A DNA stretch of 42,591 nt from Elusimicrobia bacterium RIFOXYA2_FULL_50_26 (GCA_001800355.1 MGVF01000038.1:1-42591), one strand, 5' to 3'. Shown: positions 5,151 to 20,928, numbered from the stretch's first letter. Made by a program: numbers and translations. Notes: a model not told the origin generated them from the letters alone.

Positions 5151-5216
5151 TCCCGGATTCGATATTGCATAGCATTTTAAGCTGATTTTGTGATTTATTT
5201 TGCTTAAAATATAGCA

Positions 5217-5245: not shown

Positions 5246-5272
5246 TAGTATACCTTTACGAAAGCATAACCA

Positions 5273-5405
5273 GTGTCTTTTTAGCGTTTAGAAGTTGTCG
5301 TCGTCATTGCGAGCCCAAAGGGCGCGGCAATCTCGCCTTTCATCAGGAGCAACGTCTAGATTGCTTCGCTGCGTTCTCAATGACCTCAAACTGCTAAATA
5401 GACAC
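5273..5405. mobile_element. ~133-bp MITE/REP-like palindromic element, family A, copy 1
   Basis: Terminal inverted repeats GTGTCTTTTTAGC / GCTAAATAGACAC. Core GTCATTGCGAG...GCAATCT...AGATTGCTTCGC...CAATGAC. Close copies at 23906 and 41525. Confidence 0.8.
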
Positions 5406-5563
5406 CATGACCACATAATGAAACATAAGCTCCGTTCATTTATCCCAATCAGATGCAGTTCCGTAAATCGGAGGCGGGCTGAAATACAGGGATAAAGCGA
5501 TGGGGTTTTTCTTTTCGTTCGCCGACGTTCGTTGTATAAATTTCCAGGGAGAAAATAACTGCG

Positions 5564-8500
5564 ATGTCAGAGAAAAAACCTAAAGAACAGATAATCTTCA
5601 ACGACCAGTACCTGGTTATCAAAAAAATAGGCCAGGGCGGTTTCGGCATTGTATGGGAAGCGTTCGATTTTAGCCTGAAGAATTTCGTGGTAATCAAGGA
5701 GTTGCTTGAAGATTTTGCCGAAACCAGATTTATAGAGATGTTTTACAAGGAAGCGCTGATCGCAAAGAACCTGATTCACGACAATATCGTGCGCGTCCAG
5801 CATTTCTGGAAGGGTGATAACGGGTCGTACTATATCGTAATGGATTACGTAGTGGGGCGCGACCTGGGACACCTGCTTAAAAAATGCGCCGAAAAACAAA
5901 TGAAATTGCCGTGGGAGCTGTCGGTTTTCATATGCGGTTCCATGCTAAAAGCGCTTGATTACGCCAATCGCCTTGCCAAGGACGTTACAACAGGCAAGCC
6001 CTACGGCATAGTTTACAGGGATGCTTCGCCCGGCAACGTAATGATATTTTTTGACGGCAACGTGAAGCTGAGCGATTTCGGCATTGCAAAGACAGCCGAG
6101 GAACTGGGACGCAAGAGCAAGCAACGTATAATAACCGGCAAGTATGCCTACATGTCGCCGGAACAGATTCACGGCGATTCCGACATTGATCACCGTTCGG
6201 ATATATATTCGGTCGGCATCGTGCTTTATGAGATGCTTTCCAATTTGCAGCTCTACAAGGGAACTTCGGACGCCATACACAAGCAGGTTACGGAAGGAAA
6301 AATAGATCTAAAGCCGCTTGAGGACATGCAGGTGCCGCATGAACTTATAGAGATCGCGCTTAAAGCCTTGGAAAAGGACAGGGAGAAACGTTACCAGACG
6401 GCCCTTGAAATGTTCCGCGATCTGCGCAGGCTGCTTAAATTCAAGGAAACAGAAGAGCTTTCCGCGGAACTTGCGGCATTTACAAGCAAGGTAATGGCCG
6501 AAGAGCTGGAAGGCGAAGATACGTTGCTTGACTGGGTACGCCAGATAAATCTTCAGGATGTCAAAAGCGATAAGGATGTAAAAAGGATTTACTGCAGGGA
6601 TTTTATCATGGGCGATCAGTCCGCCCCGGAACAACCGGCGCAGCCGCCGGTTACTTCTGGCGATGCGGAAGCGCCTAAGGATACTGTGTCGCTTGAGGTA
6701 AAGAGCAGTGATCCCGCTCCGGCGGCGCCGCCGGTAAAGGTACGTGTTCCCGAGCGGAAAAAAGCGCCGGCCCCGGCAGCGGTAGCGGAGCATAAGGTGG
6801 AAGAGCGCGGCAAAACGGTATTCGAAGAAGTAGGCGACTGGCTGGCAAAAAAGTTCAAGGTTTACAAAAAGCGGATGTTGCGCATTTCTATAGCTGTTGC
6901 GATTGCCGCCGTATTGTTTATGGCCGCCGATACGTTCATGCAGATTACGCCGCTGGGTAAAAATATTTACGCGCACCTTTACCCGCCCGACGTCGTTATA
7001 ACAACCGTGCCGGGTGGCGCCCGTGTTTCGTTGCAGACACGGGATGGCAAGTATATATTGTCAAATGCGGATTCCGTTTACCCTGTAGAATTAAGAAAGG
7101 TCATACCGCAAAGTTATGTGCTTACAGCTGAAAAGGAAGGCTATAAGCCTTTCGAGCGTGTCATAAAGATAGAAGAAAAAGGCGCCGGTTCCAAAACCGC
7201 GCAGCGCATAAATATTGTTTTTGAATTTGTTCTTAATATCAATTCAGATCCTTCCGGCGCGGATGTGTTTATTGACGGCAATAAGTTCGGCGTTACTCCA
7301 TGGAAAGGAGATTTAGTCGCGGGTGAACACACGGTAAAACTCATGTTGTCCGGTTATGAGAATCTCGGTTCAGAGGCAAAGGAATCTCACGAGGGCCAGT
7401 GCAGCCTTGATTTCACCCGTGCCACGGATAGTGAAATATTTTCAGGCATTGATAAAGTTTACTGGAAGTACGACATAACAAGCGAAAGCGGTGTCAAAAC
7501 ATTTAATCTTGCCGGCGCGCTTTTTAAACGTTACAACATCACTTCCTCGCCCAACGGGGCGTCGGTGTACGTAAATGACGAGCCGCAGCGGCGCGCCATG
7601 ACTCCCGCCGTAATTCCATTTAAAAACGGGGAATATTCGCTGCGCCTTACCGACGCTAACGGGAGATACGAAGAAACGAGAAGAACGCTGAAGGTTGACA
7701 AGGAATCCGACAACAAGGTTTTTGTCGTAATGAATCGGTGGCTTAAGGTAAAAGTCGGCATAAAGGATGAGCCTGGAAAGCCTGTCGGCGCCACGGTCAA
7801 GATAACCGGAACAGGCAATTCGTTTTCGGCCGAGAAGAAAATAACCAGTGATAAACCGGTGAGGTTTGCGTTGCCGCGGGGCAAATTCAAAATAGTTTTC
7901 GATGCGGGCAAGGAATATAAATTATTGACTTTTAAGAACTTTGAAATCGGCGAAACCGGCGAACTTGCCGGCCACATGGAATACAGCGATACAACGTTAA
8001 AAGTTATAGTGAAGGAAACGGCCACGCAAAAGCCTATAGGCGATGCCTACCTGTGGATGCGCGGTCAGATAGCAGGCAAAACAGACAGCAGCGGCTTCTG
8101 GGAAAATACTGTAATTTGTGGTACCGGGACCATACGCATAGTTGCCAAGGGTTACGCCGAGAAGACTCTTGATTATAATGTTATACCGGGCGCAAAGGAA
8201 GATAACTCACTTCTTGTTTCCCTTGATCCGGAACTCCCGGCGGCTTTGCCCAGGCCGTCATCGCCTGTGTCGTCAGGAAACGCTAATAATAAGCGCGATG
8301 AGGTTGTGGTGCCCGGTCGTGCCGGCGGCTCGATCAGATACATTGAAAACCCTGTAACGAATAAGCCCGTGATAAGCGATACTAACCCGGACAGGAGCCG
8401 CGTTGTAATTATCTGTCCGAATTGTAAAAAAGAATACCCTGCAGGTTCCAGGAAACTACGGTTTTGCATTAATTGCGGCAAACCTCTTAAATGGGAATGA
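5564..8500 (+). CDS. Membrane-anchored Hanks-type Ser/Thr protein kinase with PEGA repeats and C-terminal zinc ribbon
   Basis: Kinase motifs IGQGGFGIVW, VVIKE, YRDASPGN, DFG, GKYAYMSPEQ, SDIYSVG. Pro/Ala linker, TM ISIAVAIAAVLFMAA, PEGA-like INSDPSGADVFIDG..GVTP and ITSSPNGASVYVND, terminal CPNC..FCINCG. Confidence 0.93.
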   Translation: MSEKKPKEQIIFNDQYLVIKKIGQGGFGIVWEAFDFSLKNFVVIKELLEDFAETRFIEMFYKEALIAKNLIHDNIVRVQHFWKGDNGSYYIVMDYVVGRDLGHLLKKCAEKQMKLPWELSVFICGSMLKALDYANRLAKDVTTGKPYGIVYRDASPGNVMIFFDGNVKLSDFGIAKTAEELGRKSKQRIITGKYAYMSPEQIHGDSDIDHRSDIYSVGIVLYEMLSNLQLYKGTSDAIHKQVTEGKIDLKPLEDMQVPHELIEIALKALEKDREKRYQTALEMFRDLRRLLKFKETEELSAELAAFTSKVMAEELEGEDTLLDWVRQINLQDVKSDKDVKRIYCRDFIMGDQSAPEQPAQPPVTSGDAEAPKDTVSLEVKSSDPAPAAPPVKVRVPERKKAPAPAAVAEHKVEERGKTVFEEVGDWLAKKFKVYKKRMLRISIAVAIAAVLFMAADTFMQITPLGKNIYAHLYPPDVVITTVPGGARVSLQTRDGKYILSNADSVYPVELRKVIPQSYVLTAEKEGYKPFERVIKIEEKGAGSKTAQRINIVFEFVLNINSDPSGADVFIDGNKFGVTPWKGDLVAGEHTVKLMLSGYENLGSEAKESHEGQCSLDFTRATDSEIFSGIDKVYWKYDITSESGVKTFNLAGALFKRYNITSSPNGASVYVNDEPQRRAMTPAVIPFKNGEYSLRLTDANGRYEETRRTLKVDKESDNKVFVVMNRWLKVKVGIKDEPGKPVGATVKITGTGNSFSAEKKITSDKPVRFALPRGKFKIVFDAGKEYKLLTFKNFEIGETGELAGHMEYSDTTLKVIVKETATQKPIGDAYLWMRGQIAGKTDSSGFWENTVICGTGTIRIVAKGYAEKTLDYNVIPGAKEDNSLLVSLDPELPAALPRPSSPVSSGNANNKRDEVVVPGRAGGSIRYIENPVTNKPVISDTNPDRSRVVIICPNCKKEYPAGSRKLRFCINCGKPLKWE

Positions 8501-8533
8501 TGCCGGTATTTTTCCAAGAAAAGGAACGTTCCT

Positions 8534-9739
8534 GTGAAAATGAACTCCATGGAAAATCTCTCAAAAATAGCAACGCTCCTGATAACCGTGATCATGATTC
8601 TAGTCCATGCTCAACAGTTACCCGCCGCATTTTCAAACACAATAACCTTCCAGGGTAAACTTACCGACGACTCAGGCAACGCCTTAAGCGGTAATTACGA
8701 TTTCACTTTCAAGATTTATTCCATTGTTACGGAAGGAACTTTGCTCTGGGAAGAGGATCACGATTCAATCGTGGTTGCAAACGGGCTTTATTCCGTGCTG
8801 CTGGGTGAGAATACGCCCCTGGGACTTGATTTTAACGCGGATTACTGGCTTGAAATAAATGTAAGTCCCGCGGGCGAAAATTCATTTGAAAGGTTATTGC
8901 CAAGGCACCGTTTGGCGATGGCTCCCTACTCCGCCAACTCAGCCCGGCTTGGCGGCCTGGGTTCGGACAGTTTTGTTAATTCCACAAATCCCTACTGGCT
9001 TGTTCTTACCACCGGCGGCGTTACCTCGCTTCATACCCACGATGCCGGTTCCGTAATAAATCATCTTGACAGCGGCGAATACTACAATGATGTAAAAGTA
9101 TCCAGCGCAATCTGTTCAGACAGGCTTTCCGGGTTCGCTTACAGCCATTTTGTTACCACTTCCACGACACAGGTAATAAACGGGGCCAAGACGTTTACAG
9201 GCAATATGAACGCGGCCGAAAATTTGAACATTGGCGGGCCGGGATACTCGGTTAATTTTTCCAGCAACGTTTCGGTAGGTGATTTGTTGCAAGCCGAGAC
9301 GGCAACTATAAACGAATTAAGCGTTAATTCCCTCAAAAAAGCGCCGGGCGTGGTTGTCCTTCTGTACTGTGATGAAACACAGGGTGTGGACGTCAATGAT
9401 ACAACATCCGAGACAAACAGCAAGGCGTACCTGCTTGCGGCCAATAACTATTCAAGGATTATAGTTGAAAGTGAAGTTTACACGTATAATCTGCGTAACG
9501 CCAATGATATTCCTGAAATAACAGTGTCGCTTCTGATTGGTTTTAATGAGAAGACTTTCACGTTTCGCAATATAGGCACAACCGATACGAACTCCGGGAG
9601 TAAGGTCAATAGTACGCTGAAATTCAGCGCAGTACAAAATAATGCGGCATGGATAGTGGTAAGCATTGACCCGGATACGGCGGATAACGATATCGGGGGG
9701 CGGGCATTAAGCTTAAGGGTGTACGGCGTATTACCCTGA
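8534..9739 (+). CDS. Secreted phage-tail-fibre-like protein (long paralog)
   Basis: Signal peptide. N-domain ITFQGKLTD..G.YDFTF..W.E..NGLYSV.LG..YWLE..PRHRL..APY. Shaft motifs LGGLGSDSFV, LHTHD, QVINGAKTFTG. Beta-rich C-terminal head. AAGGA lies 8 nt before GTG 8534; ATG 8540 and 8549 are alternative starts. Confidence 0.7.
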   Translation: MKMNSMENLSKIATLLITVIMILVHAQQLPAAFSNTITFQGKLTDDSGNALSGNYDFTFKIYSIVTEGTLLWEEDHDSIVVANGLYSVLLGENTPLGLDFNADYWLEINVSPAGENSFERLLPRHRLAMAPYSANSARLGGLGSDSFVNSTNPYWLVLTTGGVTSLHTHDAGSVINHLDSGEYYNDVKVSSAICSDRLSGFAYSHFVTTSTTQVINGAKTFTGNMNAAENLNIGGPGYSVNFSSNVSVGDLLQAETATINELSVNSLKKAPGVVVLLYCDETQGVDVNDTTSETNSKAYLLAANNYSRIIVESEVYTYNLRNANDIPEITVSLLIGFNEKTFTFRNIGTTDTNSGSKVNSTLKFSAVQNNAAWIVVSIDPDTADNDIGGRALSLRVYGVLP

Positions 9740-9759
9740 TTTTTAGAGGATTCAATAAA

Positions 9760-10380
9760 ATGCGATTTATAAATAGTGGTTTTTTTGTTTTGTTTTTGAT
9801 CCTGTCGGTGTTAACGGCAGATATTTCAGGCGCGTTGCCCGGTGTTATCAGTTTCCAGGGGAAACTGACCGATGCCGACAATAACAGTGTCAACGGTTCA
9901 TATGATTTTAAATTCACATTGTACGATAATGCCACGTCAGATTCCGAAGTGTATAAGATCTGGACCGAGACGCAGTATGGAATAGCCGTTTCAAACGGGT
10001 TGTACAGCGTCGAGTTAGGCAGAGCCAACCCGGAACTTTCGGCAATAACATTCAACGCGCCTTACTGGCTCCAGGTAGAGGTTTCACCTGCCGGTTTGGG
10101 AAGTTACGAAACGTTTTCCCCGCGTCACCGGCTTACCGAGGCTCCCTACGCATTTAGAAGCGAATACGCCAACAATCTTGCTGCTTCAAGCGTCGTTATA
10201 AGCACTATAACCGCATCCAGCATTTCCGTTTCCAATACTTTTAAAATGCCCGTAGTAACCAATTTGCCGGCAACTCCGTCTTCCATAGGCATGTTATATT
10301 ACAGGACGTCAGACAACACTGTACACGTTTCAACTGGTACTGCGTTTAATGCCTGGCGGCAGCTTAACTGGCAGCCGTAA
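9760..10380 (+). CDS. Secreted fibre-like protein (short paralog sharing the N-terminal domain)
   Basis: Signal peptide. ISFQGKLTD..GSYDFKF..NGLYSVELG..YWLQVEVSPAG..PRHRLTEAPY aligns with 8534-9739. C-terminal GMLYYRTSDNTVHV..W resembles fibre knob segments. Confidence 0.7.
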   Translation: MRFINSGFFVLFLILSVLTADISGALPGVISFQGKLTDADNNSVNGSYDFKFTLYDNATSDSEVYKIWTETQYGIAVSNGLYSVELGRANPELSAITFNAPYWLQVEVSPAGLGSYETFSPRHRLTEAPYAFRSEYANNLAASSVVISTITASSISVSNTFKMPVVTNLPATPSSIGMLYYRTSDNTVHVSTGTAFNAWRQLNWQP

Positions 10381-10386
10381 TATAAA

Positions 10387-11613
10387 ATGAATTTATTAAA
10401 AAAGTGCGTATTATTTTTCCTTCTTACGGTCGCCGTCCCCGATGGTTGGGCGAACCTGTCCACGGGTACGAGTGTTTCTTCTTTTGATGTTTACAGTTGC
10501 GGGTTTAGCACAGCGTCTTCATCTTCTTACAGAAACTTCGGATTGGTCGGCCAGGCCGCCTGCGGAGCTTCCGCGAGTGCGAGTTATAAGAATTACGCGG
10601 GTTTTGTCCCTGCTTTCGTGCTTATACTGGACGTGGTTATATCGTTCATTGACGAGTCGCCCTCTTCCGGCGAATGGCAGCAAACCACCAATGTAACCTG
10701 CCATATAACGGTGGAGACATTAGAGGGTAATCCCGTTTCAGGAGTAAAATACCGCATTGCAAGCGAAGGCGCGGACGAAGCCGTATTTTCACCGTGGCGG
10801 AGCGATGCCGTTATCGAAACAACCTACAGCGGCAGCGAGGTGCGCTTCCAGGCGGCAATTCCAGGCGCGGCGCTGGACTCGTTTGCCGAGGGACAGGACA
10901 ATTTTATACAATGGCGCGCAAAAAATTCCGGCGGCGTGGAAGCGTTTTCCGGTAAATATCGCGTGCGCGTCATGGCAAACGATGCTCCTGAAATTGCCAT
11001 ACTGCAACCCGATGAGAAAAGCGGCGTCGCTTCCGACAGGCTTTTTGTTGAGGCGCAGTTGACGGATGCATGCTGGGGCATAGACGAGAATTCCGTTGAG
11101 CTTAAGCTGGATGATGCCAATAACTCTAATATCGCTCTTGTTACATCAGCCGCAAACCCGGGAATATATTCGGCGCCTTCCGGTAAGGTTTCCTATACTT
11201 ATGCCGGTGCGCCTCTTGCGCCGGGGGCTACTTATAAACTGACCGTTTCGGCAACTGACAAAAACGGCAAAAATAGCTCTTCGGTTCTTTCGTTTAAGTT
11301 GTTAGGGGGGGCGATCCCGGATATTGTGCCTTACCCTTCGCCGTTTGATCCAAAGAAGGAGAGCGTGGCCATACGTTATGTGTTGCGCAAGGATTCAGGA
11401 GTAAGCATTAACGTATACGATATGTCGGGCCGGCTTGTTAAAGAGGTCATTGATAACGAACCACGGAAGGCTGGAACGTGTGAGGATACGTGGACGGGAC
11501 GGAATTATGCCGGCGAAGGCCTGGCAAACGGCGTTTATTTCTGCGAGGTCGTGGCAACGGATGATGAAGGAGAACACCGCCGCTATTCTTCGCTGGCTAT
11601 TTTCGGAAAATAA
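10387..11613 (+). CDS. Secreted Ig-fold protein with T9SS type-A-CTD/FlgD-Ig-like C-terminal domain
   Basis: Signal peptide. C-terminal IVPYPSPFDP..IRYVL..INVYDMSGRLVK..WTGRNYAGEGLANGVYF. N-terminal S-rich SYRNFGLVGQ..SYKNYAGF motif. Confidence 0.8.
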   Translation: MNLLKKCVLFFLLTVAVPDGWANLSTGTSVSSFDVYSCGFSTASSSSYRNFGLVGQAACGASASASYKNYAGFVPAFVLILDVVISFIDESPSSGEWQQTTNVTCHITVETLEGNPVSGVKYRIASEGADEAVFSPWRSDAVIETTYSGSEVRFQAAIPGAALDSFAEGQDNFIQWRAKNSGGVEAFSGKYRVRVMANDAPEIAILQPDEKSGVASDRLFVEAQLTDACWGIDENSVELKLDDANNSNIALVTSAANPGIYSAPSGKVSYTYAGAPLAPGATYKLTVSATDKNGKNSSSVLSFKLLGGAIPDIVPYPSPFDPKKESVAIRYVLRKDSGVSINVYDMSGRLVKEVIDNEPRKAGTCEDTWTGRNYAGEGLANGVYFCEVVATDDEGEHRRYSSLAIFGK

Positions 11614-11614
11614 C

Positions 11615-12664
11615 ATGCGCCATCTTATTATACCCGGCCTAATCAGCCTGCTTATGGTGTTGTGGTGTTGCCCTGCGTATGCCGAGGCAAACCCCGCCGC
11701 CTTTCTAAATACCGGCGTCGGTGTGCGCGCCATGGGCATGGGCGGCGCCTATACCTCGATAAGCGATGATCCATCGGCAATGTATTGGAACCCTGCCGGT
11801 GTGGCAAAAATTCAGCGGCTTGGCATAACTGTCATGGGGCAATCAATGGGCGCGGCGCGTTGGGATACGCTTTCCGATGTTACGCCGGTATACCAGTTTG
11901 TAGGTATTATTTTACCATTGCAGTCATTGAACTTTATTAATATACTTGGTGATGATAACGCGGTGGGTATCGGGTATATAAGTAATGCCCTTGGCGGGGT
12001 CCCGTATACTTTTCTGGACGATTCGGGTGTTATCGTGCGTGAAGAATTTGATGACAGGGAGTGTGCGTGGTTTTTATCGTACGGCTTTTCGCTTTTGGGT
12101 ATGGATTCGTTGTTGCTCGGCGGTACTTTAAAGTACATAACGCAGGAGTTTACGCGCATAGAAGGAGCCAGTGCCAGCGGTTATGATTTTGATGCAGGGA
12201 TGATTTATTCCCTGGACGAAGGCTTTAACGTGGGTGTTCTACTTCAGCGCGGGGCCGAGCTTCAATGGGCTAACGGCCACACGGATGCCGGGCCGTTTAC
12301 TACAAAATTAGGGGTTTCCAAAAAGTTTGTCTTACCCGAAAGCTTCTCCGTGCTTGGAAGCGCGGATATTGTCCAGCGGCAGACAACGCCCCTTTTTTCA
12401 CATTTTGGCGCGGAGCTTGGGTATGAGCAGGAGCATGGCGGGGAAATATTCAGCATGGAAGGTATTTTTCTTCGACTGGGGCTCGACGGCGTGGCGCTCG
12501 AAGACAGGTATGAATACCGTGATAAAATAAATAACAACGTCAATTTTACGGCCGGTATCGGCGTAAAGTTTTCGTACAGGAAATTCGGCATTCAACTTGA
12601 TTATGCCATGGGTTCATACCGTTTAGGAGACAAAAACAGGTTTTCGTTGAATATATATTTATAA
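11615..12664 (+). CDS. PorV/PorQ-family (FadL-like) outer-membrane beta-barrel
   Basis: Start reassigned to ATG 11615, directly after the upstream stop, which gives a signal peptide. AAFLNTGVGVRAMGMGGAYTSISDDPSAMYWNPAG motif, amphipathic strands, C-terminal QLDYA..RFSLNIYL. Confidence 0.82.
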   Translation: MRHLIIPGLISLLMVLWCCPAYAEANPAAFLNTGVGVRAMGMGGAYTSISDDPSAMYWNPAGVAKIQRLGITVMGQSMGAARWDTLSDVTPVYQFVGIILPLQSLNFINILGDDNAVGIGYISNALGGVPYTFLDDSGVIVREEFDDRECAWFLSYGFSLLGMDSLLLGGTLKYITQEFTRIEGASASGYDFDAGMIYSLDEGFNVGVLLQRGAELQWANGHTDAGPFTTKLGVSKKFVLPESFSVLGSADIVQRQTTPLFSHFGAELGYEQEHGGEIFSMEGIFLRLGLDGVALEDRYEYRDKINNNVNFTAGIGVKFSYRKFGIQLDYAMGSYRLGDKNRFSLNIYL

Positions 12665-12676
12665 AGGATTGCAATC

Positions 12677-13666
12677 ATGAAAAAACATTGCCGTTACATT
12701 ACGCTGATCGTGAGTGTTGTGTTTTTCGCAGGGGCAGCCGCCAGGTGTTTTGCAGACAAGAAAGATGTTACCGACCCCGTGTTGAAGGAAATAATTTCAT
12801 CCTTCGGCGACCGGATGCCGAAATTTATTGACAAGCACGGTGCCGACATTTTTGTTGTTGACGGCACGGTAACGCGCGGCGCTTTAATGCAGGTGTTCTA
12901 TGAGTATGATAAATCGCTTAAAATCCCCAGGAAAGAAGCCGTTTCCAGGCAGGAATTAGACGAGATTAAAAGAAAATTGGCCATCCTGGAAAAGAATATC
13001 ATGGCGCCTCCTCCTTCGCTGGCGAAAAACGATATGATGCAATTAATAAACGAACTAATGCCGAATATGCCTGCGCTTCTGGATAACAGCCTTATGAATT
13101 CCAAGGTATTCGCCAGCCTCAGGGACCAGGTGCATTCCGCGAATTCCGCCGGAACAGCCACCTCCGCCGGCACTGTTGACACCCGCGAAATTGATGAGCT
13201 TGGCAACAGGATCGCGCTGCTTGAAAAAAAGTTGTTGAATGCGCCGGTTGCGGCTAAACACAACGCTTCATCTGATGATACCGCACGCTTACAACAGGCG
13301 GTTGCCGGCATGGACCAGAGGTTGAAAAAACTGGAGGGAAGGCCACAGGCAACGGCCAGCGGTGTTTCCGGGACGGATATAAATAAAATCATAGGGGAGT
13401 TGCGTCCGGAAATAGATGATATAGTGAACGAAAGCGTAAAGGATTCAAATGCGGATTCCAAAAGTTCCTCAAGAGAGATGCTGAAAAATATTGCAAAAAC
13501 GCGCAGCGATATCGCCAAAATCAACCGGCGGCTTGAAACGATTGAAACAAAATCCGGCGCCCAGGCCAGAAAGAACGGCGGAACAAGCTTGTCTTCGGCG
13601 GGATCTACATTGACCAAGGTAACACTGGGTCTTAGCATGGTCGCCGCGTTTTTTATCGCCCGGTAG
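12677..13666 (+). CDS. Exported coiled-coil protein with SLH-like motif and C-terminal hydrophobic anchor
   Basis: Signal peptide, DGTVTRGALMQVFYEY (SLH-like), repeated heptads (ELDEIKRKLAILEK, EIDELGNRIALLEK, DIAKINRRLETIE), C-terminal VTLGLSMVAAFFIAR. Confidence 0.65.
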   Translation: MKKHCRYITLIVSVVFFAGAAARCFADKKDVTDPVLKEIISSFGDRMPKFIDKHGADIFVVDGTVTRGALMQVFYEYDKSLKIPRKEAVSRQELDEIKRKLAILEKNIMAPPPSLAKNDMMQLINELMPNMPALLDNSLMNSKVFASLRDQVHSANSAGTATSAGTVDTREIDELGNRIALLEKKLLNAPVAAKHNASSDDTARLQQAVAGMDQRLKKLEGRPQATASGVSGTDINKIIGELRPEIDDIVNESVKDSNADSKSSSREMLKNIAKTRSDIAKINRRLETIETKSGAQARKNGGTSLSSAGSTLTKVTLGLSMVAAFFIAR

Positions 13667-13694
13667 AAGCGACTAACCAACAGGAGAATTTGGT

Positions 13695-15956
13695 ATGCCA
13701 AAAGTTATACTGGAGAAAAAAGCGGAAGTTATGGCCGAATTCAATTTTTCCCGGAAGAAAGCCATCACCGTGGGAAGCGGCAAGGAAAACGACATAGTAA
13801 TAAAGGACAAAAGCGTTTCCGAACACCATTGCACTATTTCATATAAAGACGGCAAATATGAGCTAAAAGATAATAATACACTTTCCGGCACGCAGGTGGA
13901 TGGGCGTTCCGTAACTATTTATGAACTTCGCATGGGAAATCGGATAACGGTCGGGGGACATTCTGTTGTATTCAGGTCTATTCAATCGCGCAGGGCAAAA
14001 GCAGTCGCCCCAAAAGAAACCGACGATGATTCATTTTCCGGTGGCCCGGGCGAGGACAAGATGCTATTTCTTCTCGGCATATACGGAAAATTTGAAGGTA
14101 AGAAATACGAGATAAAAAACGGCGAGACCTTTATAGGGAGGGAAGAAGTAACCCCCAGGGGAATACCTAACGACATCGTCCTTACTGATGATATGACTGT
14201 TTCCAAGGGACACGCCAGGATAACGCGCGCCGGTGACAAGTGCATATTGACCGATACGGGAAGCACCGGTGGCGTAGGCATAAACGGCGCAAAGGTAGGC
14301 CAGCTGAATGACGTCGAGATTAAGCCCGGCGACGAGATAGCGATAGGAAGAACTATTTTTCGTTTTACAGGCGGCGATCCCGATTATTCAGCGCCTAAGC
14401 GTTACGGTGCGGCGTTTATGAAAATCCGCAGGGTTCTAAACGCAACGGTTATTTTGGCCGTGGTGCTGTCTTCCTTATTCTACCTGTTTAAAGGTTTCAA
14501 CGGTATTTCAATCATAAATAGTTCGCCGGAGAGGATTGTTATCCGTTTCGACGAGTCATGGCAGGCAAAGGGTAACACGTCTCATCCCGCGCCGGAAGTT
14601 TATGACATAACTTCTTCTCCCGCTCTTGGCGACATAAACAAAGATGGTGTCAATGATATAGTTTTCGTCAATGCGGCCGGCCAGTTATCCGCATATAACG
14701 GCAAAACGGGTACTACCCTCTGGAGTCCGGTGGAAGTGCAGGCGCCCGGGAAGGCCTCGCCCGTGCTTGCCGACATGAATAATGACGGTGTAACGGACGT
14801 AGTCGTGCTTTCCGGGACATCCATGATTTATGTTATAGACGGCCAGGCCGGGGTAGTAATACACAAGGATATGCTTGGCGGCACGATCAGCGATATGTCG
14901 CCCGCGGTGGCGGACATAAACCTCGACGGCAGGCGCGACATCGTGGCTTGCTCCGAAGAAGGAACGGTGTATTTTATTTATTCGCCGGGTTTTGAGCTGG
15001 CTGCGGAAAAGTTACTGGAAACCGTGGAGGGCCCGGTATATGCGTCGCCGGTTATTATAGCCACAAGAAAAATTTCTCCCCTGGTCGTGATAAGTTCATA
15101 TAACAGCAAGCTGTTCTTGTTCAGCGGCAGTTCGCGCGATAAGAAAACGATAGATCTGGTGGAAAGAACAGGCAAGGCGCACCTGATACAATCTTCACCC
15201 GGGTCGGGAGACTTGAACGGGGACGGTATACCGGAATTAATCGTGCAATCGAGCATACCGCAGTATATATCGGCGGTGGACATATCCGGTTTTGAAGTGA
15301 AATGGACTTATTTTGTGGATCCTGTGCCGCCTGCCGAGTTAAAACATAATTCGACGCCGCTTGTTTTTGACATGGACCGCGATGGCGGCGGCGATGTCCT
15401 GGCGCTTTCAGGCAATGGAACTGTATACGGCTTGAAAGGTAAAACGGGTTATCCCGCGGGCGAGTTGTTGTGGAAGTATACCTTTCCTTCGGCGAACAGG
15501 ATTATCTCATCTCCTGCGCTATTTGATTTTAATAAAGATGGCATGCAGGATGCCGTGTTCGGGGGAGAGGACGGAACTATCCATATCTTTGACGGTTTCG
15601 CGGGCAAACGTGAAACCGGCAGGATACTCGCCGCCGTTAAGGCAAGCAATGCTGCAATAACCTCATCCGTCGCCCTGGGTGATGCTGATGGGGACGGCAT
15701 GATGGAGGTGGTATATGGCGATATTGCCGATTCCTTGCAAGTGCTGCGCACGAACGCGAAGGTATTTAAAGCCAGGGTATATTGGCCCATGTTCCTCGGG
15801 GACGCGGCGCATGCCAGTTCTGGCAGCCCGGATCAGGCTGGCCCGTACATTATAATGGTAATGTCTTCGCTAGTGGCGTTGATCATCCTGGCATTGGTTG
15901 AAATAATGCTGAAGAAACGGCAACTGACTAAGAGGCCGCGCGTAGTTTATATTTAA
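13695..15956 (+). CDS. Membrane protein: two N-terminal FHA domains, TM, FG-GAP/VCBS Ca-binding beta-propeller, second TM
   Basis: FHA1 ITVGS..VSEHH..SGT; FHA2 FIGR..VSKGHA..STGG. Seven S(P)xxxDxxxDG repeats. WPMFLGDAAH closing motif, C-terminal TM and basic tail. AGGAG RBS. Confidence 0.88.
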   Translation: MPKVILEKKAEVMAEFNFSRKKAITVGSGKENDIVIKDKSVSEHHCTISYKDGKYELKDNNTLSGTQVDGRSVTIYELRMGNRITVGGHSVVFRSIQSRRAKAVAPKETDDDSFSGGPGEDKMLFLLGIYGKFEGKKYEIKNGETFIGREEVTPRGIPNDIVLTDDMTVSKGHARITRAGDKCILTDTGSTGGVGINGAKVGQLNDVEIKPGDEIAIGRTIFRFTGGDPDYSAPKRYGAAFMKIRRVLNATVILAVVLSSLFYLFKGFNGISIINSSPERIVIRFDESWQAKGNTSHPAPEVYDITSSPALGDINKDGVNDIVFVNAAGQLSAYNGKTGTTLWSPVEVQAPGKASPVLADMNNDGVTDVVVLSGTSMIYVIDGQAGVVIHKDMLGGTISDMSPAVADINLDGRRDIVACSEEGTVYFIYSPGFELAAEKLLETVEGPVYASPVIIATRKISPLVVISSYNSKLFLFSGSSRDKKTIDLVERTGKAHLIQSSPGSGDLNGDGIPELIVQSSIPQYISAVDISGFEVKWTYFVDPVPPAELKHNSTPLVFDMDRDGGGDVLALSGNGTVYGLKGKTGYPAGELLWKYTFPSANRIISSPALFDFNKDGMQDAVFGGEDGTIHIFDGFAGKRETGRILAAVKASNAAITSSVALGDADGDGMMEVVYGDIADSLQVLRTNAKVFKARVYWPMFLGDAAHASSGSPDQAGPYIIMVMSSLVALIILALVEIMLKKRQLTKRPRVVYI

Positions 15957-15983
15957 TTTTTCAAGTTGTTCAGGAGGAGAAGT

Positions 15984-17438
15984 GTGAAGGTTACGTATTT
16001 TGCAAAAACGGACGCCGGTAAAGTGCGAAGGGAAAACCAGGACAGCTATGCAATCCTGGAATCGGAAAATCTTTTCGCGGTTTACGACGGCATGGGCGGC
16101 GGGGCGGCGGGAGATTTTGCCAGCCGGTGCGCAGCCGATATTGTAATGGCGTCTTTATGCTCCCTTAAGAAAAAGGACGTGGCGGCTGTCGCCGGTGGTG
16201 GTTCTCCGGAGATCGGAGAGGACGCACAGCGCATTATCTCGGCGGTTCGCATGGCAAACCATGTTCTTTTTAAATTTTCTGAAGCATATACGCGCCTGGC
16301 GGGCATGGGGACTACGGCTGCAATTATAAAATACGATGCTGCTAACAGTGTTATGCACATATTTCATGTCGGAGACAGCCGTGTTTATCGTCTTCGCGGT
16401 GATGCTCTTGAGCTTCTAACCAAGGATCATTCCAAGGTTACCGAGCTTGTTGAGCAGGGCAAGATGCGGGAAGATGAAATAAATATGGTCGAAATACAGA
16501 GTATGATAACACGCGCCCTGGGCATTCAGCATACTGTTAAAATAGATTATCGCATGGAGTATATGAAACCGGGAGATCTGGTTTTGCTTTGCTCCGACGG
16601 CCTTTCCAGCGAAATTGATGATGCCGCCATAAGTAGAATAATGCTGGGCAACGGCGGAGACATCAGAAAGATTACGGAGCAACTGATAAACTCGGCGAAT
16701 GCCGCGGGCGGGAAAGATAATGATACCGTCATAACTCTGAAATTCAATGCAAGCCACGCATTTTTACCTTCCAGTAAGCCAGCCGGCTCCGGTTTCGGCG
16801 CCGTAATGACCGTGTCCGGTGAAACGCCACCGCAGCTTGCGGCGGAGCGGCACCTGGCAAATAGCATTATCGAAGCAGCCAGGATAAAGATACCGGTGTC
16901 AGCCATGGAAAAGAGTATATTCACCAATCCGCTCTATCTTGGCGCGGCCATAACTTTGCTTGTGATAGGTATTGCCGGCTCAGTAGCGCATTTTTCCATT
17001 AGCAAACCGGAAAGGGAGCTTACGGATCTGACGGGTAAAATTGCGGGGCTTCGCCTGGAAGTGCGGGCGCCGTCCGCAGACCAGATAGCGTTGTTTAAAA
17101 AAGCGGACGACAGGATTCAGAAAATGCAGCTATTGCAGGATTGGCACCTTGATACCGTTAATACGACCGTGCCTGTGAAGGGCGCCGAGCTGCGCATAAT
17201 GAAAAACGGCGTGGAAAAATTCAGCGCGGTTACTGCCGGCGTTCCGATTGATGTAAATCTTGACGGTGGCAATTACATTGTGGGGATAAAATATAAAAAC
17301 CACCGCATAATAAATCATAATCTTAACTTAAAAGAAACTATTCGCGTTCCGGTTGAGAAATCAGAGAATCTTCAACCGGTTACGATACTTTTGGTGCCGG
17401 ATAACATTATGTCAGCGCCCGATACCGGCAGGGAATAA
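15984..17438 (+). CDS. PP2C/PPM-family (Stp1/PrpC-like) Ser/Thr phosphatase with TM and extracytoplasmic domain
   Basis: TDAGKVRRENQD, DGMGG, HVGDSRVY, LCSDGL, GGKDN; TM LYLGAAITLLVIGIAG. Start set at GTG 15984 behind AGGAGG (15972-15977). Confidence 0.92.
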   Translation: MKVTYFAKTDAGKVRRENQDSYAILESENLFAVYDGMGGGAAGDFASRCAADIVMASLCSLKKKDVAAVAGGGSPEIGEDAQRIISAVRMANHVLFKFSEAYTRLAGMGTTAAIIKYDAANSVMHIFHVGDSRVYRLRGDALELLTKDHSKVTELVEQGKMREDEINMVEIQSMITRALGIQHTVKIDYRMEYMKPGDLVLLCSDGLSSEIDDAAISRIMLGNGGDIRKITEQLINSANAAGGKDNDTVITLKFNASHAFLPSSKPAGSGFGAVMTVSGETPPQLAAERHLANSIIEAARIKIPVSAMEKSIFTNPLYLGAAITLLVIGIAGSVAHFSISKPERELTDLTGKIAGLRLEVRAPSADQIALFKKADDRIQKMQLLQDWHLDTVNTTVPVKGAELRIMKNGVEKFSAVTAGVPIDVNLDGGNYIVGIKYKNHRIINHNLNLKETIRVPVEKSENLQPVTILLVPDNIMSAPDTGRE

Positions 17439-17448
17439 GGAGGAGCAG

Positions 17449-18204
17449 GTGCCGGGAAAAAATAAAAAGATATTTATTGTAGAGGATAACAAGCCGTTTC
17501 TTGAAACCTTGAGCGATTTCCTTGTTTCCAAAGGATACGATGTGGAAAGTTTGGCGATCGGAAAGGGCGCTGCCGAGAAGATAAAGGCAACCGGTGCCGA
17601 CCTCGTGATGCTCGACATTGTGCTGCCGGATACGGACGGATTTCAGATATGCAGGGATATTAAAAGCGATCCGGTAACAGCGGCGGTCCCCATAATGCTC
17701 ATGACAGGTAATGAAACCATAGACATAGACAAGGGTTTTGCCCTCGGCGCAGACGAATGCATCTACAAGCCATTCAACCTGGAAGACGTTGCCTTGCGCA
17801 TTGCAAGGCTGCTGACGAGAAAGCAGAAGATATTCATCGTTGATGACGACCGCAAAATCGGTGATATGCTTACATTGATGCTTACAGAACAGAAATATGA
17901 CGTGGTTGTGTTTTACGAGGGGAAGGGCGTTGTGGAAACTGCTAAAAAGGAGCGTCCGGATCTTTTACTGCTGGACATAAATCTCGGTTTGCCGCCAGGG
18001 GGGATAGATATATGCGGGGAGTTGAAGGCTGATGCCCTGACCAGGACGATACCCATAATAATGTTTACCGCCAACGACGACGTGGAATCGGTGGAACGCA
18101 GTTTCGCATGTGGCGCCGATGATTATATATTCAAACCGTTCAAGGTGCCGGAACTGCTGCTCAAGGTAAGAAAGTACCTTACATATGTTAAGAACACGCA
18201 ATGA
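17449..18204 (+). CDS. Response regulator with two tandem receiver domains and no output domain
   Basis: IFIVED..VMLDIVLPDTDG..YKPF and IFIVDDD..LLLDINL..FKPF. Start set at GTG 17449 after AAGGAGGAG. Confidence 0.9.
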   Translation: MPGKNKKIFIVEDNKPFLETLSDFLVSKGYDVESLAIGKGAAEKIKATGADLVMLDIVLPDTDGFQICRDIKSDPVTAAVPIMLMTGNETIDIDKGFALGADECIYKPFNLEDVALRIARLLTRKQKIFIVDDDRKIGDMLTLMLTEQKYDVVVFYEGKGVVETAKKERPDLLLLDINLGLPPGGIDICGELKADALTRTIPIIMFTANDDVESVERSFACGADDYIFKPFKVPELLLKVRKYLTYVKNTQ

Positions 18205-18229
18205 TACGGTTCAAGCCGGAGGATAAATA

Positions 18230-20365
18230 ATGAATTTTGGCAGGAAACTGGTGCTTAGCTCGGCTGTTATAGCTTTTATTTTAGGACACCATGCAGCGCG
18301 TCCCTGCTATGCTTCTAATGTTACGGCCGCAGATTCGCTGCGTTTTGTGCCTGACCCACAGTCTGCCGCGATGGGGGAAAGCATTGTTTCTTTTTCAGGA
18401 TCGCCGGCCGTGATGATTGTCAACCCCGCAGCCATGGTTTATATTTACCAGCCTAAACTGTGTTTAAGCGACCTTATGTTGTGGGAAGGCTTGCGGTATA
18501 ATTTTGCCGGTTTCACCGTGCCCACCGGCATGGGAACCCTGGGTTGTTCGCTGTCGTACCTTTCATACGGAAAGATTCAGGGTTATGGTTATGACGGCGC
18601 TGAATACGACTTGCCTTCCACCTACGATGTGGCGGCTACCTTTGGTTATGCGCTGCCTCTGAAAGTTGACCTGCCGTTGCGCCGGGAGTACGGCAGCGTG
18701 GGCATTAACGTAAAATTTATCGTTAACAAACTGGCAAATTATTCCACGGAAGGCGTGGCATTTGATTTCGGAGGTATTTTCAAGGTGCCGTTCGTGGACG
18801 GATTAAATGCCGCGGTTGTTTATCGTAACGCGGGAACCTCGCTTAAATATACGAAAGATGCCAATGCATTGCCGGACCAGGCGCGGTTCGGTATCCGCTA
18901 TAACAGGCCGGCTTGGCGCAATCTTGCGCTGGTGGCCGATTTTAGCCAGGATATAAACAGCGCCATGCAGGTGTTTTCGGCCGGGGCCAGCATAATGCCT
19001 TTGTACGCCATTACGTTGCGCGGCGGGTGGATCGATGCGGAGAACTCCATCACATCAGGGGTTCGCTGGGGTATCGGTATGGATTTTGATATTTTCTCTT
19101 TAAACTATGCGATGTCGTCATTTAAAGATTTTACAATGTCCCACCAGGTTGGCGTAGATATTCCGCTGGGCAGCATTGCGCAGCCCAGGGCGGCCTACGA
19201 TCGTTACCTCGACGTTTATTTTCAGCGCGCAAAGGATAAATACGATGAGCGTGATTACATAGCGGCACGCCAGCAGATAGAGGAAATACTTTCAGTTTAT
19301 CCGGGACACAAGCAGTCCATCGCCTATCTTGAAAAGATAAGCGTGCAACTTGATAAAATAGACCAGCGGAAAAACTCCAAAATAGAGAAGCTATTGCGGG
19401 AATCGGAAAATGCCGTAATGCGAAACGATATAGAATACGCCAGGAAAAGTTTTAACAGAATTTTAAGAATAGATCCCGATAATGGCGCAGCGCTTGACGG
19501 GCTAAATAAAATCGAAAAAGTTACGGGCGAGGTGCGCGAACAGGATATGAAACAGTGGAAACAGGCGCTTCAATATTTGCATCAGGGCGAATACGTCATG
19601 GCCAAGCTGAATTTCGAGCAAATATACGCGGCTGATACTTCGCGTGACGACGCAAAGCGCATGGTGTTCGAAGCCGAGCAGCGCATAATAGAGATGAGCG
19701 CGGGCGAGATAAACAGGTTTTACAAGCGCGGCACCGCATTATTTAAGAAAGGAAAGTACAGCCAGGCTGTTCCATATTTTGAGGCCGTTACTGTCGCCAA
19801 CCCCAGTTTTATTGATGGGCAAAACTACCTTCTGAAATCCCGGCAGCGTATACGGGAAATAGAGCTGGGTGTTGAGAACAGGGAAACCAACCGTAAGCGC
19901 GAGACTGCCGAAAACGAAATAGCATCGGCTTTCAGCAACGCTTTAAGGCTTTATGACGGCGGCAATAATTATGAGGCGCTGGACGCATTCATGAAATGCC
20001 AGGAGATGGCGCTGCGCCATGATTTCAAGGAATACCTGGATCGCGTCAACAATTTTATCGCAACCATCCGCGCCAACATAGCCGAGCAGTACCTGCGCGC
20101 CGGCAAGAGCCTGGTTGACAGAAACGATGTCGAGAGCGGGCTTGAGGAGTACCGCAAGGGATTGATGTATGATCCCGGCAACGCGCAGGTGAAAGCCGAG
20201 TTTGATATTATTTCACGTTTGCTGACCAAACAATATTACGAGAAGGGAGCGGCGCTCTTTAAAAGCGGCGATGCCGTCGCGGCCAGGCAGATGTTCGAAA
20301 AATCGCTTTTTTATAATCCGGATAATGAAGAGGCGCGAAATGCCCTGGGAAAAATTTCGCGCTAA
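18230..20365 (+). CDS. PorV/PorQ-like beta-barrel fused to C-terminal TPR repeats
   Basis: Signal peptide. AADSLRF..SAAMGE..NPAAM variant of the PorV motif. Barrel ends near SHQVGVDIPLG, followed by ~390 aa of TPR helices (FYKRGTALFKKGKYSQAVPYFE, YYEKGAALF..FEKSLFYNPDNEEA). Confidence 0.8.
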   Translation: MNFGRKLVLSSAVIAFILGHHAARPCYASNVTAADSLRFVPDPQSAAMGESIVSFSGSPAVMIVNPAAMVYIYQPKLCLSDLMLWEGLRYNFAGFTVPTGMGTLGCSLSYLSYGKIQGYGYDGAEYDLPSTYDVAATFGYALPLKVDLPLRREYGSVGINVKFIVNKLANYSTEGVAFDFGGIFKVPFVDGLNAAVVYRNAGTSLKYTKDANALPDQARFGIRYNRPAWRNLALVADFSQDINSAMQVFSAGASIMPLYAITLRGGWIDAENSITSGVRWGIGMDFDIFSLNYAMSSFKDFTMSHQVGVDIPLGSIAQPRAAYDRYLDVYFQRAKDKYDERDYIAARQQIEEILSVYPGHKQSIAYLEKISVQLDKIDQRKNSKIEKLLRESENAVMRNDIEYARKSFNRILRIDPDNGAALDGLNKIEKVTGEVREQDMKQWKQALQYLHQGEYVMAKLNFEQIYAADTSRDDAKRMVFEAEQRIIEMSAGEINRFYKRGTALFKKGKYSQAVPYFEAVTVANPSFIDGQNYLLKSRQRIREIELGVENRETNRKRETAENEIASAFSNALRLYDGGNNYEALDAFMKCQEMALRHDFKEYLDRVNNFIATIRANIAEQYLRAGKSLVDRNDVESGLEEYRKGLMYDPGNAQVKAEFDIISRLLTKQYYEKGAALFKSGDAVAARQMFEKSLFYNPDNEEARNALGKISR

Positions 20366-20376
20366 CGGGAGATCGT

Positions 20377-20751
20377 ATGCGTTATAAAATTATAATCGCA
20401 AGGGCGTTGACGGCTCTGGCCGTAATGGGAAACATGGGTTTTGTGTCCGCGGATATAAAGGCTTATCCCGTCCCCTGGGTGCCTGAAGCGGGCAGGGAGG
20501 GTAAGATAGTATCGGGCAATTATACCGACGGCATAACATTTGCCGGCCTTCCATCGTCGGGTGATATATATATTTATAATATCAACGGCATGCTTGTCCG
20601 CCGCGTTACGTTTAGCGATCCTGTGGGTGGGCATCTGCGGCTTTACGGCGCAAATGACAGTAACGGCGGCTACATTTCAAGCGGCGTATACATATGGAAG
20701 GTCGTCGGTGACGGAATATCAAAAACAGGCAAATTGATAGTGGTGCGGTAA
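20377..20751 (+). CDS. Small secreted protein consisting of only a T9SS-CTD/FlgD-Ig-like domain
   Basis: Signal peptide followed by IKAYPVPW..ITFAGLP..IYIYNINGMLVR..SSGVYIWKV..KTGKLIVVR. Confidence 0.78.
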   Translation: MRYKIIIARALTALAVMGNMGFVSADIKAYPVPWVPEAGREGKIVSGNYTDGITFAGLPSSGDIYIYNINGMLVRRVTFSDPVGGHLRLYGANDSNGGYISSGVYIWKVVGDGISKTGKLIVVR

Positions 20752-20872
20752 TTACAGCCGAAAATCTGTTGCCTTATAATCGTCCGGCTTTATGACACAG
20801 TCGTCTGGTCGGGCAATGACAAACCTCACTGTAAACCTGCTGAAAAACTCTCCCCTGTCGATTTATTTAATG

Positions 20873-20901
20873 TTGCTTTTTTCCCAAAATATACGTACAA
20901 T
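20873..20901 (+). promoter_or_regulatory. Putative sigma70 promoter for the MgtE-like/Nramp/housekeeping run
   Basis: TTGCTT (20873-20878), 17 nt, TACAAT (20896-20901). Confidence 0.55.
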
Positions 20902-20928
20902 TAGTGAACAACTTATGTTACGCAGCGT

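Follow-up and report, generated by a model that had tools for sequence, protein, structure and literature searches.

The 42,591-nt window analyzed here (GCA_001800355.1 MGVF01000038.1:1-42591) is contig C38 of a metagenome-assembled genome (MAG) of a little-known member of the Elusimicrobiota from groundwater, Elusimicrobia bacterium RIFOXYA2_FULL_50_26, which spans 2.01 Mb in 138 contigs and is 92% complete. Positions 5564-20751 of its plus strand are occupied by eleven co-directional genes, designated G1 to G11, in which membrane-bound phospho-threonine signalling components are encoded together with secreted fibre-like proteins, outer membrane barrels and a receiver protein. The genes were delimited by ORF calls and their domains assigned by Pfam and NCBIfam scans, while transmembrane (TM) segments and signal peptides were predicted with a hydropathy script. 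With two starts re-set, that of G5 to an ATG at 11615 and that of G9 to a GTG at 17449 preceded by AAGGAGG, consecutive genes are separated by gaps of 1-33 nt. A first-pass annotation of this DNA had counted ten genes rather than eleven; its account of them as co-directional and spaced by 1-33 nt holds, as does its inventory of two PorV-like barrels, two proteins resembling type IX secretion cargo in their C-terminal domain (CTD), two fibre-like proteins, a coiled coil, a kinase/2xFHA/PP2C set and a double receiver, all of which were recovered. This is a genuine and conserved cluster that has not been described before; each part is of a known kind, and the novelty lies in their combination and in the fibre-adaptor-barrel unit outlined below. 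Brought together in the operon are three modules, each of which also occurs apart, namely module A (G1, G6, G7 and G8), module B (G2-G5) and module C (G9 and G10). The closest named relative of the host is the MAG Elusimicrobia bacterium RIFOXYA2_FULL_47_53, with which the FHA protein shares 60% identity.

Module B begins with two genes, G2 (8534-9739) and G3 (9760-10380), encoding secreted fibre-like proteins of 401 and 206 aa, respectively, each composed of a signal peptide and a shared N-terminal domain of ~110 aa, which is followed in G2 by a variable C-terminal part. The N-domain resembles that of the mosaic adhesive trimer (MAT) proteins of Bdellovibrio, as matches to Bdello_MAT_N (NF053851) were obtained with both G2 (38.1 bits, E 1e-9) and G3 (33.4 bits, E 4e-8), covering positions 3-78 of the 162 in the model only. 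Because these matches stay below the cut-off of the model, G2 and G3 are MAT-like by sequence rather than members of the MAT family. Comparison of twelve fibres revealed a conserved N-domain and a variable remainder, and a profile of the N-domain (fibN) is matched by G2 at 159 bits. In an AlphaFold2 (AF2) monomer model of G3, residues 30-125 form a beta-sandwich with pLDDT values of ~90, and residues 129-206 remain below 50. A Foldseek search of this model against the PDB returned nothing at E<=1e-3, only generic beta-sandwiches, and a sequence search of the PDB with G2 and G3 gave 0 matches at E<=1. Leads for the G2 N-domain from the ESM Atlas were set aside, all of them being clusters without a name (0.92-0.93) that are labelled as Verrucomicrobiota or as Acidobacteriota. 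Neither Pfam, NCBIfam nor the comparison of fibres revealed a CTD in G2 or G3.

Within the phylum, the fibre N-domain profile finds matches in 209 of 401 genomes, with up to ten or more copies per genome and host frames of up to ~4,800 aa; in the genome studied here the domain occurs twice only, in G2 and G3. More distant relatives of the N-domain are found outside the phylum, in records named Verrucomicrobiae, Undibacterium, Margulisiibacteriota and several groups of the candidate phyla radiation (CPR). Eleven of 64 distant relatives carry an S74 chaperone of endosialidase domain (PF13884), and one bears the name 'tail fibre domain-containing protein'. The Endomicrobiaceae-like fibres (L046, L048, L049, L050, L045, L047, L051 and L038) share a C-terminal domain of ~150 aa. 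This domain (ADLAEIY...GDVV...GKALE...LVNLQ) has a weak Peptidase_G2 IMC match only, and may represent an unrecognized autochaperone family.

The two genes that follow the fibres encode an adaptor and a barrel. G4 (10387-11613) possesses a signal peptide, an N-terminal region with three S-x-(S/N)-(Y/F) repeats (G4N, encoded at 10462-10620), a pair of Ig-like domains and a CTD of the FlgD_ig type. The AF2 model of G4 shows disorder over residues 9-82 and three confident beta-sandwiches over residues 85-405; Foldseek placed P. gingivalis PorU (6za2, E 3e-12) first among the structures matching this model, and the NCBIfam PorU model matches G4 only in the C-terminal Ig-plus-CTD part. The CTD itself scores 56.2 bits with FlgD_ig (cut-off 27), 19.4 with TIGR04183, 21 with PF18962 (cut-off 27) and 18 with the type-B model CHU_C (cut-off 27). 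G5 (11615-12664) is a barrel of the PorV/PorQ family, as is the barrel portion of G10, and the family assignment made in the first-pass annotation is thus upheld, if closely: the 90-bit cut-off of NF033709 is just exceeded by G5 (91.4 bits, positions 4-324 of 326) and by G10 (91.9 bits, positions 2-322 of 326), both of which fall far below the equivalog cut-offs (14-29 bits with the PorV models and 38-79 bits with the PorQ models).

That the G4 CTD sits on the neighbouring barrel is predicted with high confidence by complex modelling. Mature G5 was modelled with G4 residues 300-408, each accompanied by a 13-row alignment of orthologues, and three runs gave ipSAE values of 0.90, 0.91 and 0.91, as compared to 0.00 for the best control; among solved complexes 58 of 80 attain the mark applied to ipSAE, as do 2 of 110 mismatched pairs. 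Across runs the pLDDT of the partner was at least 86, and of ~145 contacts at least 93% were common between runs. Modelling of each barrel with each CTD had been suggested as a check on whether the barrels possess a CTD interface, and for the pair on which it was run, G5 and G4, such an interface is predicted. G5 is accordingly listed here as the predicted receptor of the G4 CTD.

A possible role for the G4N region emerges from fibre loci located away from the kinase operon. Eighteen such loci were taken and one, a fragment of the operon, was dropped; of the remaining 17, eight encode a small adaptor (184-414 aa) beside the fibre, and in seven of these eight a PorV-like barrel gene is directly next. 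The small adaptor starts with a signal peptide, continues with a G4N region of ~50 aa in which the S-x-(S/N)-(Y/F)...G repeat occurs three times, and ends in a CTD joined through a Pro-rich linker, such that G4 is an adaptor of this type into which two Ig domains are inserted. Some small adaptors carry precomputed assignments to PF13585, PF13860 or PF18962, and some are named 'T9SS type A sorting domain-containing protein' in NCBI annotation. A profile built from G4N only gave 27 matches in 22 of 401 genomes, of which 21 reach E<=1e-9 and ten of these lie outside the profile build; eight of the ten are located no more than 2.2 kb from a fibre N-domain match, among the 150 of 651 N-domain matches listed. 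Of the other two, one belongs to a copy of the operon at a contig end and one cannot be judged from the 150 matches listed. The profile is too narrow to describe presence or absence across the phylum, and what it documents is co-localization. In the genome studied here it matches G4 alone, and many contigs carry CTDs (19 frames in all) and G5-like barrels (23 frames). Since the sequence for the triple repeat nearly always neighbours a fibre gene, we infer that G4N docks the fibre N-domain; the disorder of G4N in the monomer is what would be expected of a peptide that acquires its fold upon binding, and that the repeats number three, as would the subunits of a presumed trimeric fibre, is no more than suggestive. 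PamT, a CPR pilus-tip protein that PMC13278184 presents as a truncated Ig-like tip pilin, was dropped as a relative of the G4 N-terminal region (weak NCBIfam match, E 0.002, 17.5 bits against 240), there being no reason to link the two.

The genes of module A enclose this unit. G1 (5564-8500) encodes a membrane Hanks-type Ser/Thr kinase (Pkinase, 131 bits) in which a cytoplasmic kinase domain is followed by a single TM segment at residues 441-459 and by PEGA/CarboxypepD_reg domains (PEGA, 90 bits, in three stretches) that are predicted to be periplasmic. All 17 G1 orthologues keep the Gly-loop, the VAIK Lys, the (Y/H)RD Asp, DFG and SPE, and in all 17 the catalytic-loop Lys of Hanks kinases is replaced by Ser. 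G7 (13695-15956) contains two cytoplasmic FHA domains (108 bits), a TM segment at 247-265, a periplasmic FG-GAP propeller (FG-GAP_3, 93 bits) and a second TM segment at 719-737. Its FHA2 domain is canonical, with G-R, S-x-x-H and N-G present, and its FHA1 domain is without the conserved Arg in the window and in the orthologues read. G8 (15966-17438) is a PP2C phosphatase (PP2C_2, PF13672, 41 bits against 24) with a TM segment at 323-341 and a periplasmic tail of ~150 aa. According to the hydropathy predictions, then, kinase, FHA protein and phosphatase each carry periplasmic parts. Matches to more narrowly defined models remain below cut-off for each protein: 207 bits for G1 with the NCBIfam PknB-type model, E 1e-20 for G7 with the FhaB/FipA model, and 204 bits for G8 with Stp1_PP2C (cut-off 230). 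The catalytic and phospho-threonine-binding residues of the kinase/PP2C/FHA triad are present. Named organisms among the full-length relatives of G7 are all Elusimicrobiota, with the exception of one MAG labelled Paludibacter.

The fourth member of module A, G6 (12677-13666), has a signal peptide, a coiled coil and a conserved C-terminal hydrophobic tail that is kept in orthologues from other families of the phylum, and is probably an inner-membrane-anchored periplasmic spacer of the signalling core. An SLH-like N-terminus was considered for G6 and could not be established, as one orthologue matched at E 0.02 (15.3 bits against 20.8) and the window protein did not match. A separate observation concerns the end of G1 (residues ~951-978, window 8414-8497), where a CxxC...CxxC zinc-ribbon-like motif gives a weak match to Pfam DZR (E 1e-3); given the single TM segment it is predicted to be periplasmic, an odd place for such a motif, and the L052 orthologue ends likewise.

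Module C consists of G9 (17449-18204), a protein of two receiver domains and no output domain (Response_reg, 160 bits over two stretches), and G10 (18230-20365), in which the PorV/PorQ-family barrel is joined to a TPR region of ~390 aa. Both receivers of G9 retain the acidic pair, the acceptor Asp, Thr and Lys; most of the Endomicrobiaceae-like orthologues have a single receiver. Receiver and barrel-TPR protein form a recurring pair, and a second instance is found on contig C115 of the same genome. There, at C115:27795-38000, a PorV-TPR barrel (724 aa) precedes a single receiver (125 aa), a 186-aa ORF and, beyond these, a giant frame (at least 2,337 aa) in which a Peptidase_C39-like domain is recognized. 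The operon closes with G11 (20377-20751), a small secreted protein of 124 aa that is essentially a type-A-like CTD, reaching 28.9 bits with TIGR04183 against a cut-off of 23.

Conservation of the cluster was examined by comparing, gene by gene, 21 loci around G7 matches, 16 of them from the same order and five from other families. Of 103 genomes sampled from the order, 59 encode a full-length relative of G7, as do genomes from a few families elsewhere in the phylum; at E<=1e-10, G7 finds matches in 106 of 401 genomes, many by the FHA part alone. All 16 order loci encode the FHA protein and the PP2C, 15 encode the receiver, and 14 each encode G6 and the PorV-TPR barrel, the latter being truly missing from one locus and out of reach in another, where the contig ends too early. 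G4 and G5 are present in 12 of the 16, always together (12 of the 12 having either) and always between kinase and G6. In ten of these 12 loci the kinase is separated from G4 by one or two fibre genes, and the other two lie at a contig end; for one of them (L066) the continuing contig carries the kinase gene and, after it, the beginning of a fibre gene. Modules A, B and C stand together in 12 of 16 order loci, and the fibre unit keeps its position inside the core across at least seven families of the order. G11, by contrast with these genes, was detected nowhere but in the window and in L004, the relative closest to it. As judged from these distributions, the parts of the operon differ in age and range. 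The first-pass annotation had staked its proposal on recurrence of the signalling genes with the PorV, CTD and fibre genes in other genomes, and such recurrence is what the order displays. At a locus of another family (L040 171-1394), FHA and PP2C genes directly follow an FtsA-like gene, with no kinase on the 7.7-kb contig.

The earlier proposal went further in suggesting that the operon is a type IX secretion system (T9SS) in minimal or ancestral form. Its statement that the window holds no SprA, PorK/L/M/N or T6SS genes was confirmed by the Pfam and NCBIfam scans; type VI secretion (T6SS) structural genes (TssA-M, Hcp, VgrG) were sought among the window genes and none was found, the rest of the genome not having been searched for T6SS. 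Examination of the whole genome for type IX parts places the operon in a different light. The PorV_fam model yields 29 matches in 26 frames, 16 at or over cut-off, and Por_Secre_tail (TIGR04183) yields 18 CTD matches, 17 at or over cut-off; 15 of the 18 abut a PorV-family frame, on contigs C1, C8, C23, C24, C40, C57, C61, C72, C90, C115, C120, C124 and C132 as well as in the window. From the arrangement of these genes, one barrel per CTD protein appears to be a genome-wide rule, unlike the shared PorV of the Bacteroidota. Furthermore, a SprA-like frame, truncated by a contig end but no shorter than 1,633 aa, is found at C110:6683-11584 with three collinear TIGR04189 matches of 56-60 bits (cut-off 200). 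Frames of this kind recur in 29 of 31 relatives, very small genomes included, at ~1,300-1,900 aa with three or four collinear sub-threshold matches. Pfam gave no match on the C110 frame. Downstream of it lies a ComF-like gene encoding a double-zinc-ribbon/phosphoribosyltransferase protein. Searches with the models for GldL, GldM, GldK and GldN (TIGR03513, TIGR03517, TIGR03525 and TIGR03523) found none at E<=0.01 in this 92%-complete genome, with the provision that the control genomes gave no positives for the GldL, GldM and GldN models, whose sensitivity is consequently not shown. Likewise, no PorU peptidase body was found, as each of the 14 matches to NF033707 is confined to model positions 983-1095, which belong to the CTD; this fits a retained, anchoring CTD. 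With so many PorV/CTD pairs in the genome, the operon is one cargo or anchor unit among many. It is not a T9SS, the genome resembles one only in part, and the operon is a unit of a wider, diverged CTD/PorV system.

Directly downstream of the operon, at 20790-21330, lie copies of a dispersed 76-nt repeat together with 28-29-nt inverted repeats. The 76-nt unit is present at 21027-21102 and 21130-21205, and at least 20 copies of 40 nt or longer are distributed over 18 contigs of the genome. It has an internal GC stem and resembles a dispersed intergenic repeat of the miniature inverted-repeat transposable element (MITE) or repetitive extragenic palindrome (REP) kind, here flanked by the inverted repeats. 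A 112-aa ORF at 20792-21130 lies over the repeats, is without a family match and is probably not a gene. Upstream, the GC content of the spacer dips to 29% at 5200-5299, and a consensus scan detected no promoter-like sites in 5151-5563. Over 5000-21500 the consensus promoter and terminator scan did not rise above shuffled expectation (19 sites where 22.6 were expected, and 25 where 21.4 were), and it gives no evidence on operon limits. Hence, of the boundaries described in the first-pass annotation, the 3' repeat region is borne out, and the 5' promoter-like region reduces to a GC dip without consensus support.

Genes downstream of the operon are housekeeping genes. At 21364-23903 is a gene for a PRC-barrel/MgtE-N/CBS protein without the MgtE channel domain, which overlaps by 4 nt with a gene for an Nramp transporter; the same pair adjoins the cluster in the nearest relative, L004. 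On the upstream side, window positions 3-5150 hold a frame of at least 1,715 aa, truncated by the window start, in which an APH-type phosphotransferase domain near the N-terminus and nothing else was recognized. This ORF was rejected as a member of the cluster, no relative of it having been found in the 21 related loci.

The account of the operon that we favour, tentatively and at close to an even chance, is that it represents a lineage-specific fusion of three envelope modules of the Elusimicrobiota in which a fibre unit has become coupled to signalling. Module B would be a fibre-display unit, G2 and G3 being secreted fibres with a conserved N-domain and a swappable distal part. These fibres would be held by the triple-repeat N-terminal peptide of G4, and the uncleaved CTD of G4, seated on its own barrel G5 as in the models, would anchor the assembly in the outer membrane, transport across which is probably accomplished by the SprA-like protein encoded elsewhere. 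Module A would be an inner membrane phospho-threonine unit and module C a receiver protein with a barrel bearing periplasmic TPRs. Kinase and phosphatase would set a phospho-state that is read by FHA2 of G7, and this state would be linked across the periplasm to the fibre unit by the propeller of G7, the coiled coil of G6 and the TPR arm of G10. Display or placement of fibres and envelope signalling would thereby be coupled, with signals that could pass in either direction. A more specific version, a novel trans-envelope adhesion machine in which swappable MAT-type fibres are clipped by the docking peptide to a CTD adaptor on a private barrel while the phospho-threonine unit reads or sets the state of this outer membrane unit through the FHA/propeller protein, the coiled coil and the barrel-TPR protein, is offered as a speculative and rather improbable model.

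Several observations count against this account. Four of the 16 order loci pass directly from the kinase to G6 or G7, all five loci from other families have only the kinase, (a coiled coil), the FHA protein and the PP2C, and module B is common in families without a full-length G7. Modules A and B are therefore separable, and the functional coupling of the phospho-threonine unit and the receiver/barrel-TPR pair to the fibre unit, whether physical or regulatory, is suggested by operon structure alone. With respect to the fibre unit, the Bdello_MAT_N scores of G2 and G3 lie under the curated cut-off of 60 bits, and the fibre N-domain is also present in CPR bacteria, which have no outer membrane; this denies an adaptor carried on a barrel the role of universal anchor for the domain. 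Endomicrobiaceae-like orthologues of G4 escape the G4N profile (0 of 89 genomes), indicating that the motif is not conserved throughout. Finally, structures of PorV-CTD complexes have been solved, and the success of the G5-G4 model may reflect likeness to them; close cousins of a true partner pass as well.

Other explanations of the operon must be weighed against the same data. It might be a self-contained minimal or ancestral T9SS-like apparatus gated post-translationally by its kinase, FHA protein and phosphatase in the manner in which PpkA, Fha1 and PppA gate a T6SS. PorV barrels, CTD proteins and a full phospho-threonine triad do indeed share one operon and co-occur across an order, a CTD-barrel interface is modelled, and GldK/L/M/N and PorU were not found in searches of the genome. 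Barrels of the PorV type, however, are shuttles or anchors and not translocons, while a SprA-like giant frame lies elsewhere in this genome and in nearly all of the relatives examined. The abundance of PorV-like frames and CTD matches, mostly paired, makes the operon one cargo unit of many; in addition, the fibre-adaptor-barrel unit occurs without the kinase in other lineages, and the fibres themselves lack a CTD. On these grounds this part of the first-pass interpretation is judged very improbable.

Greater weight is due to the view that module A is a general regulator of the envelope or cell cycle, comparable to PknB/PstP/FhaA/FhaB, with the fibre unit and the receiver/barrel-TPR pair as passengers in its operon that lack any specific functional tie to it. 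The core is older and wider than its companions, as the loci of other families reduced to kinase, (coiled coil), FHA protein and PP2C attest; the modules occur apart; FHA and PP2C genes follow an FtsA-like gene at one locus; and the periplasmic domains of kinase, FHA protein and phosphatase are fit for envelope sensing. The fibre unit, however, lies inside the core, spaced from its neighbours by 1-33 nt, and has held that position in no fewer than seven families of the order, as a passenger would hardly do without selection for co-expression, and the absence of G7 from many reduced genomes of the order, including 38 of 89 in its largest family, speaks against an essential housekeeping role. 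We consider this view doubtful. The remaining alternative is a variant of the fusion model in which the direction of signalling is fixed from outside to inside: the fibres would serve as antennae, and ligand or cell contact at the fibre tip would be relayed through the adaptor-barrel and barrel-TPR proteins to the periplasmic parts of G1, G7 and G8, and from there to phospho-threonine and receiver states in the cytoplasm. Variable tips on a constant base fit receptor-binding proteins, the periplasmic parts of the three signalling proteins are large, the phospho-acceptor sites of the operon's receiver protein are intact, and the receiver and barrel-TPR pair recurs beside another giant surface protein on C115. 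Yet the operon encodes no output domain, whether DNA-binding or enzymatic, and control from inside to outside fits the data equally well, which leaves a purely inward-signalling contact sensor an unlikely account.

Should the fusion model prove correct in its more specific version, its implications would extend beyond this operon. The trio of fibre, G4N-CTD adaptor and barrel is a concrete candidate partner for the MAT-type N-domain, at least in this phylum, and would be the first candidate cell-surface anchor for adhesins of the MAT or 'tail fibre' type. The Elusimicrobiota would possess a pared-down relative of type IX secretion that uses a SprA-like pore and a separate barrel for each cargo and has neither PorLMKN nor PorU; their PorV/CTD pairs and SprA-like protein, with motor, ring and sortase not found, make the question of a minimal working set directly testable. 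A kinase, FHA protein and PP2C in a fibre operon would, moreover, constitute a new case of an envelope machine controlled or sensed through phospho-threonine, beside the T6SS pathway. A search for literature linking Elusimicrobia or Endomicrobia with PorV, T9SS, FHA, PP2C, threonine kinase or tail fibre found nothing on the cluster; one candidate article, PMC12204202, which combines Elusimicrobia and T9SS, concerns TolA/TonB and PorE and was set aside, as it holds nothing on the cluster. Type IX secretion parts are treated, in those portions of the literature that bear on them here, as a trait of the Bacteroidota or of the Fibrobacteres-Chlorobi-Bacteroidetes (FCB) group.

Comparison with known systems reveals likeness to several and identity with none. 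PorU and PorZ of the T9SS retain their CTDs and are anchored on PorV and PorQ, respectively, as SprB is on SprF. The unit formed by G4 and G5 resembles PorU-PorV and PorZ-PorQ in that a CTD beta-sandwich is placed on a dedicated barrel of the PorV/PorQ family encoded alongside, and the Ig-plus-CTD part of G4 resembles the C-terminal part of PorU. The one-to-one pairing of cargo and barrel genes seen here in 15 of 18 cases also recalls the type-B CTD/PorP-SprF pairs (SprB-SprF, PG1035-PorP), which are described as cognate shuttle pairs in PMC9143113 and PMC12618676. In contrast to these systems, the host lies outside the Bacteroidota, the barrels score as PorV/PorQ and not as PorP/SprF, and the G4 CTD scores best as FlgD_ig and below the type-A and type-B cut-offs; the PorU sortase body and GldK/L/M/N were not found; and the CTD belongs to a small adaptor that serves a separate fibre rather than to the adhesin itself.

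The fibres share with the MAT proteins of Bdellovibrio bacteriovorus a signal peptide, a conserved beta-rich N-domain and a variable fibre or tip, and relatives of G2 and G3 carry C-terminal chaperones of the S74 or IMC type, as do tail fibres. The N-domain here is without a PDB homologue, and in the portion of PMC10769870 that treats it the same is said of the MAT N-domain, which 'would presumably tightly bind' a surface element not yet identified. The fibres of the window differ in being short (206 and 401 aa), without S74 and below the family cut-off, and in being encoded beside an adaptor and a barrel.

For the signalling core, two precedents are apparent. In Pseudomonas aeruginosa, the PpkA/PppA/Fha1 pathway of the T6SS works with TagQRST, and there, as here, a membrane Hanks kinase bearing a periplasmic domain, a PP2C and an FHA protein are encoded within the operon of an envelope machine together with outer membrane and periplasmic accessories. 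The present operon differs in containing no T6SS genes, in an FHA protein with two TM segments and a periplasmic propeller, and in a membrane-bound phosphatase. Similarly, the PknA/PknB-PstP-FhaA/FhaB(FipA) envelope-growth cluster of the Actinobacteria unites kinase, PP2C and FHA in a conserved chromosomal unit; here, PEGA and FG-GAP domains stand in place of PASTA, rodA and pbpA are not neighbours, the host is a diderm and the genes are lost in many genomes of the order. Lastly, the Agl-Glt complex of Myxococcus is a trans-envelope set that serves focal-adhesion gliding. The operon does not encode a TolQR/ExbBD-type motor, and the likeness is purely architectural and comprises an inner membrane FHA protein, to which the weak match of G7 to GltG (E 6.5e-9) may be added, periplasmic TPR and coiled-coil parts, outer membrane barrels and an adhesin at the cell surface.

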